64,000 nt of DNA from Escherichia phage HMD-P10, in sequence record PV469800.1, one strand, 5' to 3'. Below, in pieces: positions 13,604-14,779 of this stretch. Positions within the stretch are counted from its first letter, which is position 1, and every line of letters starts with the position of its first letter. A program made the position numbers and the translations under genes. The notes under the pieces are model-generated. The model was not told where the DNA came from. It saw only the letters and a list, made by a program, of their open reading frames with translations, and ran no database searches.

Positions 13604-14779
13604 ATGGCAGTAGGTGAAATTCAAATTAGTGCCTTGCCACAAGCGGCCTTACCAATTGATTTGAGTGATATCTTCCATCTTAAGCAAGGTGTTGAAGATA
13701 AAAGATGTACGCTTGAACAGTTGTTAGCACCTCACACATCTTTGAGGAATAACCCTCATGGTGTAACTAAATCACAAGTTGGTCTTGATAATGTTATTAA
13801 CTCACTCCAATTGGTCGCAGCTAATAACTTGTCAGACATTGTAGATGTTGCTGAGGCAAGAGCAAATCTACAGATTATGTCGTCAGATGAAGTGAACAGT
13901 TTAATTCAGAGACATATCGACGACAAAAGTAACCCACACAATACAACGAAAGCACAGGTCGGTTTAAGTAATGTTCAGAACTGGACAACATCCAACCTGT
14001 ACAATGAAGATGCTGATAAATATGCTACCGCGAGAGCAGTGAATAATCTATACAAAGCTATCCAAGCATCATATCCAGTGGGGACTATTCATCTGTCTGT
14101 TAACTCTGCTAACCCATCCACTTACTTGCTTTGTGGAGGTACTTGGGAGTTGGTTTCTAAAGGTAGGGCGCTTGTTGGTTATGATACAGAAGCTAGACCT
14201 GTTGGTTCAACGTTCGGTTCTCAGACTGTAGCATTAACAAATAATAATTTACCAGCACACACCCACTCTATCTATTTAACAGGTGGTGGTCACACACACT
14301 CTGCAAGCGTATCTATCTCTAGTTTTGATTATGGTTCAAAAAGTACATCAACTTTTGATTACGGTACAAAAACGACTAATAGTGCTGGTGCTCACACTCA
14401 CACGTTTAGCGGCACGACAAGTAATGATGGTAACCATAACCATAGAGTACCACTGAGAGGTAATGATAGAAGTGGGGGGGATGCTATTACTGCATCTGCT
14501 TATGCTGGGGTTAATAATAATACGTATACTGATTTAGCAGGTGCTCACACCCATAGCTTCTCAGGCACAACTGCATCATCTGGTGCTCATAACCATACTG
14601 TTGCAATTGGTGCTCATAGCCACACTGTTAATATTGGTTCACACAGTCATACGGGTACTGTTACTGTCTCTAGCTCTGAACATACACACTCAGGAACATC
14701 TGGTTCTGTTGGTGGTGGTCAAGCTTTCAGTGTTGAGCAGCCATCTTTTGTCGTATATGTATGGCAGAGAACAGCTTAA
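13604..14779 (+). CDS. tail fibre protein with His-x-His repeat tip
   Basis: 391 aa; NPH..TKAQVGL.NV repeats typical of phage fibres; C-terminal domain with ~10 HxH motifs (AHTHS, GHTHS, AHNHT, GAHSHT, SHSHT, EHTHS); G7 tract inside. Confidence 0.65.
   Translation: MAVGEIQISALPQAALPIDLSDIFHLKQGVEDKRCTLEQLLAPHTSLRNNPHGVTKSQVGLDNVINSLQLVAANNLSDIVDVAEARANLQIMSSDEVNSLIQRHIDDKSNPHNTTKAQVGLSNVQNWTTSNLYNEDADKYATARAVNNLYKAIQASYPVGTIHLSVNSANPSTYLLCGGTWELVSKGRALVGYDTEARPVGSTFGSQTVALTNNNLPAHTHSIYLTGGGHTHSASVSISSFDYGSKSTSTFDYGTKTTNSAGAHTHTFSGTTSNDGNHNHRVPLRGNDRSGGDAITASAYAGVNNNTYTDLAGAHTHSFSGTTASSGAHNHTVAIGAHSHTVNIGSHSHTGTVTVSSSEHTHSGTSGSVGGGQAFSVEQPSFVVYVWQRTA

Follow-up and report, generated by a model that had tools for sequence, protein, structure and literature searches.

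A seven-guanine run in the short tail fibre gene of a Felixounavirus genome, probably an incidental coding homopolymer

Fibre genes and tip anatomy

The window, that is the whole stretch of 64,000 nucleotides analysed here, is a Felixounavirus genome. The region of interest comprises two neighbouring fibre genes and the short sequence between them:

13604..14779, plus strand: short tail fibre (STF) gene, 391 aa, assigned by matches to PHROG 2097, Pfam Gp10_C and 2XGF and by homologue annotation
14789..14810, plus strand: hairpin AGGGGC-TATAAA-GCCCCT followed by TTTT, between the STF and LTF genes, from the sequence and the wV8 annotation
14826..17192, plus strand: long tail fibre (LTF) gene, 788 aa, with a paralogous gp37-type tip, assigned by Pfam and PHROG 4277

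The initial annotation of open reading frame 13604..14779 as a tail fibre gene was confirmed by three matches of its product: PHROG 2097 'tail fiber protein' (E=9.5e-138), Pfam PF21939 Gp10_C (E=1.2e-18; 68.8 bits at a cutoff of 27; residues 154-276) and the T4 gp37 tip in PDB 2XGF (phmmer, E=3.1e-27; query residues 146-362 on chain residues 18-227). The Gp10_C match corresponds to a collar domain of the gp10/gp12/gp37 type in front of the needle. Its architecture, the gene order and the annotations of phages wV8 and Felix O1 identify the predicted protein as the STF. Its counterparts are gp82 of wV8, the 'gp37-like' fibre of Felix O1 and, by architecture and gene order, gp26 of Bas63. The gene is 99.9% identical to that of Salmonella phage SP3_SHan-2021 (SP3), 98-99.4% identical to those of Escherichia phages PHB11, JN01, SME50 and vB_EcoM_Shy (Shy), about 92-94% to those of wV8, EC6, HY02 and many O157 typing phages, and about 76% to those of the VpaE1/ASO1A group. 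The protein is identical to QQG31211.1 of SP3.

Public annotation of this gene is inconsistent. It is misannotated as 'capsid and scaffold protein' in SP3 (MW296865) and EC6 and as 'XkdV' in S19cd, and several other records label it 'hypothetical protein'. Furthermore, one or two of the Felixounavirus-like records matching the window are named 'Campylobacter' phage and one 'Staphylococcus' phage; these names are probably due to mislabelled hosts or contaminant GenBank assemblies.

The STF gene lies directly upstream of the LTF gene, an order shared by all relatives compared. The LTF matches the Pfam families gp37_trimer (E=8.5e-65) and gp37_C (E=1.8e-22), while a Gp10_C match stays below the curated cutoff (22.5 bits versus 27). 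Repeats of the gp37_trimer type, which form a beta-helix, were matched in the LTF only and are absent from the STF. Three direct repeats of 86 nt in the LTF gene (15471-15556, 15813-15898 and 16137-16222; 64-84% identity, spacing of about 330 nt) are these beta-helix repeats. Three of the four Logan contigs with an identical STF end about 700 nt into the LTF gene, at the first repeat. The LTF is 788 aa long in the window, 821 aa in SP3 and 786 aa in ERR14760440; since its length differs among phages with an identical STF, the LTF is more mosaic than the STF.

A simple terminator scan missed the hairpin at 14789..14810, as its stem is followed by just four T; in wV8 the homologous site carries the annotation of a Rho-independent terminator. 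An open reading frame of 883 aa (14541..17192, GTG at 14541) in the +1 frame overlaps the 3' end of the STF gene. This frame merely prolongs that of the LTF in the 5' direction; the LTF truly begins with the ATG at 14826, which is preceded by AAGAGGAAAA.

The tip of the STF was divided into the following segments:

14249..14443, plus strand: ascending needle strand with HxH motifs at residues 219, 230, 264 and 278, from the 2XGF alignment
14444..14539, plus strand: head-domain segment (codons 281-312), which holds the guanine run and is aligned to T4 gp37 residues ~932-963
14474..14480, plus strand: seven-guanine homopolymer (G7) covering Gly291 (GGG), Gly292 (GGG) and the first base of Asp293 (GAT)
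14540..14776, plus strand: descending needle strand and C-terminal return to the collar, with HxH motifs at residues 315, 329, 338, 347 and 360

Both needle strands carry HxH motifs, four before and five after G7. By homology and from the description of Bas63 (PMC12609058), the STF would form a trimeric, six-stranded iron (Fe) needle in which the chain reverses at the head. HMMER placed the STF segment RGNDRSGGDAITAS on the gp37 segment AWNGTGVGGNKMSS, so that Gly291 and Gly292 align with Gly942 and Gly943 of T4 gp37. [quoted passage not shown] Because of the alignment of Gly291-Gly292 with Gly942-Gly943, the run is placed in the receptor-contacting head.

Sequence variation points to the same part of the protein. 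Among 14 close relatives the variable residues are densest at STF positions 286-315 (10 of 30). The pN/pS ratio reaches 0.40-0.93 in codons 281-312, compared to 0.03-0.34 elsewhere in the gene, where 14 of the 15 other region-by-relative comparisons gave values of 0.12 or below. Furthermore, 29 IMG/VR Felixounavirus homologues of the STF comprise at least six head types, in which the stretch between the two central HxH motifs contains indels. The alignment, the cluster of variable residues and the pN/pS values thus agree with the first reading of the sequence, which had assigned the run to the receptor-binding part of the fibre, and they place it in the hypervariable, receptor-contacting head loop of a T4-gp37-type tip. 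Gene, fold and hypervariable head are already described in the literature.

Frequency and slippage products of the run

Direct reading of the window gives AGT GGG GGG GAT at 14471-14482, with seven guanines exactly at 14474-14480. The run is read in frame 0 of the STF gene, because the distance from 13604 to 14474 is divisible by three, and the codons are Ser290, Gly291, Gly292 and Asp293. Letters and reading frame are therefore as initially annotated, a G7 inside the fibre coding sequence.

G7 is the longest run of G or C in the 64-kb window. G runs of 3, 4, 5, 6 and 7 bases occur 257, 66, 9, 1 and 1 times, respectively, and C runs reach a maximum length of 4. In 2000 mononucleotide shuffles of the window there were on average 1.19 G/C runs of at least 7 bases, and 71% of the shuffles held at least one. 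A first-order Markov model predicts 0.57 such runs for G and 0.15 for C (0.72 together). A single G/C run of this length in 64 kb is chance level (about 0.7-1.2 expected). Besides G7 the window holds 55 homopolymers of at least 6 bases (40 A6, 2 A7 at 8519 and 61341, 11 T6, 1 T14 and 1 G6 at 58794), and nothing singles out G7 functionally among these 56 candidate repeats. In the fibre gene GGG serves as Gly codon in 4 of 35 cases, and two of these four make up the run.

The effect of slippage was followed in silico. Loss or gain of guanines leads to one of two stop codons:

14512..14514, plus strand: TAA reached after insertion of one G (G8) or deletion of two (G5), in-silico variants
14535..14537, plus strand: TAG reached after deletion of one G (G6) or insertion of two (G9), in-silico variants

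The TAA lies 10 codons past the run in G8, which gives a product of 303 aa (302 aa for G5). The TAG lies 18 codons past the run in G6, with a product of 310 aa (311 aa for G9). Both G6 and G8 products lack five of the nine HxH motifs (residues 315, 329, 338, 347 and 360). A slip by one base in either direction thus removes the descending strand and the C-terminal return to the collar and leaves the ascending strand intact, and the proposed truncation of the HxH tip was reproduced at the level of the predicted products. G7 is an in-ORF tract whose change in length is predicted to switch expression. From the six-stranded architecture the truncated fibre would be expected to be non-functional.

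Fusion of the STF to the LTF by deletion of a G was considered and rejected. The TAG at 14535-14537 closes the frame 18 codons after the run, and the LTF frame is open only from 14541, 3' of this stop.

Distribution and length of the run among relatives

Among the GenBank relatives examined, SP3, PHB11, JN01, SME50 and Shy share G7 with the window and no others do; these five are at least 98% identical to it in the gene. In the nine remaining relatives it is interrupted or deleted: the site reads GGGTCAA (Ser-Gly-Ser-Asn) in pEP20, S19cd and fBSPA4, GGGTTAA in EC6, GGCACAA in wV8 and MET-P1-301 and GGTACAA in Tf and HY02, while the VpaE1 group shows a codon deletion. The 29 STF genes from IMG/VR are all intact open reading frames of 375-402 aa, and none of them holds a G/C run of 6 bases or more. 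Another head type in this collection has Tyr-Gly-Gly-Asp at the aligned position, encoded by GGT GGT GAC or GGA GGT GAC, and T4 gp37 has Gly942-Gly943-Asn. Judged from these alleles, a Gly-Gly loop would not need the nucleotide run. The tract is neither maintained across relatives nor enriched beyond chance.

An 87-nt probe compared with 50,697 phage records found exactly five at 100% identity and no indel variant of the run. These five GenBank genomes come from China, Korea, Portugal and elsewhere, and all have an intact reading frame. Four Logan assemblies from separate runs (ERR14760440, SRR21938097, SRR12328915 and SRR27009657) likewise carry G7 in an intact frame; within the STF gene 0-5 nt, outside the tract, distinguish them from the window, and none of the four contigs ends at the tract. 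Together with the window and the five GenBank genomes, the length is the same in 10 of 10 independent assemblies, a comparison of consensus genomes that is blind to minority variants and under-samples an OFF state, as plaque-purified isolates are selected for a working fibre. Tract-length polymorphism between isolates was thus not seen in these ten assemblies.

Exact look-up of the predicted G6 and G8 proteins in a collection of 15 billion proteins found neither, a test restricted to variants whose N-terminal background is identical. A search for N{4,10} between the exact flanks in IMG/VR and JGI metagenomes returned no match, G7 itself included, and the 87-nt region had no match in E. coli complete genomes. 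As these searches returned nothing, G7 included, the three collections are uninformative on variation. A literature search found no reports of fibre heterogeneity for the five G7-carrying phages.

The conserved C-terminus of the STF is kept in every complete homologue retrieved, including those of Erwinia, Yersinia, Pectobacterium and Hafnia phages, which indicates purifying selection on the whole fibre. The one exception is P0052, a Logan contig of 1717 nt, whose STF fragment of 281 aa aligns in its N-terminal part to 48% of the query at 90% identity. The fragment runs out of frame after about residue 185 (…GGTWELVS|RVEHWLV…), a site other than G7, and is either an assembly error or a natural defective variant. 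Its presence in the collection means that frameshifted forms can enter a protein collection.

A homopolymer elsewhere in the window served as a positive control for length variation:

43996-44043: strong hairpin (-22.9 kcal/mol) and T14 run (44030-44043) of a terminator, just after the nrdD-like open reading frame 41843..43987

This terminator is annotated as rho-independent in ASO1A and ASO1B. Its T-run has 6 bases in Shy and CL1, 7 in PHB11, 11 in ULIM8, 13 in ASO1B and 14 in the window, and PHB11 and Shy, with T7 and T6, both keep the fibre G7. As lengths from T6 to T14 were recovered among relatives, comparison of consensus sequences is able to reveal hypervariable tracts. In the window it is this T-run that truly varies in length. 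Its length could tune termination or read-through into the small downstream genes.

Origin of the run and comparison with known systems

We consider it very probable that G7 arose incidentally as a coding homopolymer and is no more than a minor frameshift hotspot, the products of which are purged. The run would have arisen within one young lineage of STF alleles, in which a cluster of substitutions turned the head loop Ser-Gly-Ser-Asn into Ser-Gly-Gly-Asp. The nearest outgroup allele, that of pEP20, reads AGT GGG TCA AAT where the window reads AGT GGG GGG GAT, a difference of four adjacent substitutions (TCAA to GGGG) that replaces Ser-Asn by Gly-Asp. The second Gly would have taken the rare codon GGG, beside an existing GGG and ahead of an Asp codon that starts with G, and selection would have acted on the amino-acid sequence of the loop, not on the nucleotide run. 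A cluster of substitutions is expected at this site because amino-acid change is fastest in codons 281-312; in the head loop nonsynonymous change is about as fast as synonymous change. Nevertheless, the conversion of TCAA to GGGG, giving a pure run, is a little unusual and counts against this reading, and the longest G/C tract of the window lies in the head, where a switch would be most useful.

Like any run of 6-7 bases, G7 is probably a modest hotspot for polymerase slippage. By analogy with T-even phages, slipped genomes with a fibre cut at the head domain may make up about 1e-4 to 1e-3 of a population. Such a fibre would be missing that half of the six-stranded HxH needle in which the chain returns; it is expected not to function, and the variants would therefore be purged. 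Phage genomes commonly contain homopolymers of at least 6 bases, which mutate at about 3e-4 on average in T2/T4. Tail-fibre genes have fewer of them than expected (0.77x), and the authors see in this the effect of selection against such runs in essential genes (bioRxiv 10.1101/2025.10.21.683753). In a challenge experiment with a Felixounavirus, only missense changes were found in fibre and baseplate genes (PMC6669636).

A comparison of the STF genes of Shy and the window revealed that all but 2 of the 23 nucleotide differences fall within the first ~360 nt (13604-13960). This pattern suggests a recombination breakpoint that transferred a tip cassette between backbones, and the G7 tip cassette would thus have moved as an intact functional module.

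The initial annotation had also offered the run as a possible phase-variable host-range switch. As a contingency locus, it would reversibly turn the STF off and on by slipped-strand mispairing, so that a subpopulation relying on the LTF alone would have another host range (bet-hedging). The run does lie in frame within the receptor-binding head, a slip by one base truncates the fibre, and the adjoining paralogous LTF with its own gp37-type tip could sustain adsorption as a possible back-up adhesin; besides, runs of at least 6 bases are reversible hotspots in T2 and T4 (bioRxiv 10.1101/2025.10.21.683753), and Campylobacter phages are reported to use polyG tracts in this way (Sorensen et al. 2021, as cited in PMC10877375). 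Nevertheless, the tract is confined to one clade at least 98% identical in the gene and missing from all 29 IMG/VR homologues, and no OFF-length allele turned up in the ten assemblies or in the collections searched, while the neutral T-tract varies freely. The intact C-termini of the STF homologues examined, with the exception of the frameshifted P0052, argue that the fibre is needed in full. The run is no more frequent than chance predicts, homopolymers are scarce in tail-fibre genes (bioRxiv 10.1101/2025.10.21.683753), and Gly-Gly-Asp is encoded in other alleles without any run. A switch of this kind is therefore unsupported, and we regard it as very improbable. Very improbable, too, is the narrower version, a recent contingency locus specific to this lineage, with the STF off at a frequency of at least 1e-3 and STF-less virions infectious via the LTF on some hosts. 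In phase-variable bacterial genes the tracts typically comprise about 8 or more units, and G7 is shorter.

Homopolymers are error-prone on several sequencing platforms, and the length of seven might accordingly be a sequencing or assembly error or, as had also been suggested at the outset, the site mainly an error hotspot. However, ten independent assemblies from different laboratories agree on G7, it is the only length near seven that keeps the 391-aa frame and the conserved C-terminus, and none of the four Logan contigs breaks off at the tract. An error at this site is hence very hard to reconcile with the data. Hardly conceivable at all is that a defined short isoform of the fibre is made here by programmed ribosomal frameshifting or by transcriptional slippage. 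A G-run can allow re-pairing of tRNA-Gly, and for a few codons neither of the alternative frames is closed. However, read in the zero frame the context T GGG GGG G does not fit the X XXY YYZ pattern, the predicted RNA fold of the 116 nt from the run onward is no better than that of shuffled sequences (z = -0.29), translation in the shifted frames stops after 10 and 18 codons and no extension is conserved, the TAG at 14535 prevents a fusion with the frame of the fibre gene that follows, and the site is absent in relatives. Heptamer, stimulatory structure and conserved extension in the alternative frame, the hallmarks of a programmed -1 frameshift, are thus all missing at G7.

As an incidental homopolymer in a well-understood type of fibre gene, G7 itself matters little. 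For those who sequence or engineer phages of this lineage, several of which are candidates for biocontrol of O157:H7 or Salmonella, it is the likeliest spot for spurious or real frameshift calls in the STF gene, and the G7 allele marks a distinct, recombining tip cassette. If a switch did operate, enterobacterial myoviruses would join Campylobacter phages as carriers of phase-variable receptor-binding proteins, the STF of a Felixounavirus would be conditionally dispensable, and a Felixounavirus of E. coli/Salmonella would possess a reversible means of host-range bet-hedging, of a kind so far shown for receptor-binding genes in Campylobacter phages alone.

Homopolymers of at least 6 bases have been described as reversible 'contingency loci' in agt and rIIA of T2/T4 (Gomez, Barrick and Waters, bioRxiv 10.1101/2025.10.21.683753). 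G7 resembles them as a run of at least 6 bases within an open reading frame in which slippage is inactivating, and thereby falls under the operational starting definition of that preprint. At the known loci, however, the length was measured to be heterogeneous, the change is reversible and each of the two states brings a selectable benefit, whereas G7 is invariant in all samples. Also unlike them, it is not conserved and lies in a gene class depleted of such runs, and the product is a structural adhesin and not a dispensable modification enzyme. In Campylobacter Fletchervirus, polyG tracts are reported to generate phenotypic diversity (Sorensen et al. 2021, as cited in PMC10877375) and are documented as length-variable; the G7 described here is not.

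The closest structural parallels are known fibre tips. Like the T4 gp37 tip (2XGF), to which it is clearly homologous, the STF shows HxH motifs that recur on either side of a central loop, with nine matches in the STF and seven in gp37. The STF differs from gp37 in being a 391-aa fibre placed directly on the baseplate, while gp37 is the distal half of a long fibre built from four proteins, and, as far as the protein alignment tells, gp37 has no homopolymer at the aligned codons. In the cryo-EM structure of Bas63 both the STF (gp26) and the LTF (gp27) end in a T4-gp37-like tip, which consists of a collar, an HxH needle and a small head; the chain doubles back, hence the six-stranded needle (PMC12609058). 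The receptor of the STF is probably LPS, as for the genus (PMC8594841). Bas63 is a distant member of the genus, and the likeness to gp26 is drawn from architecture, gene order and the annotations of wV8 and Felix O1: the STF of the window belongs to the same genus, is encoded directly upstream of the long-fibre gene, has an N-terminal part free of beta-helix repeats and ends in a gp37-like C-terminal tip.
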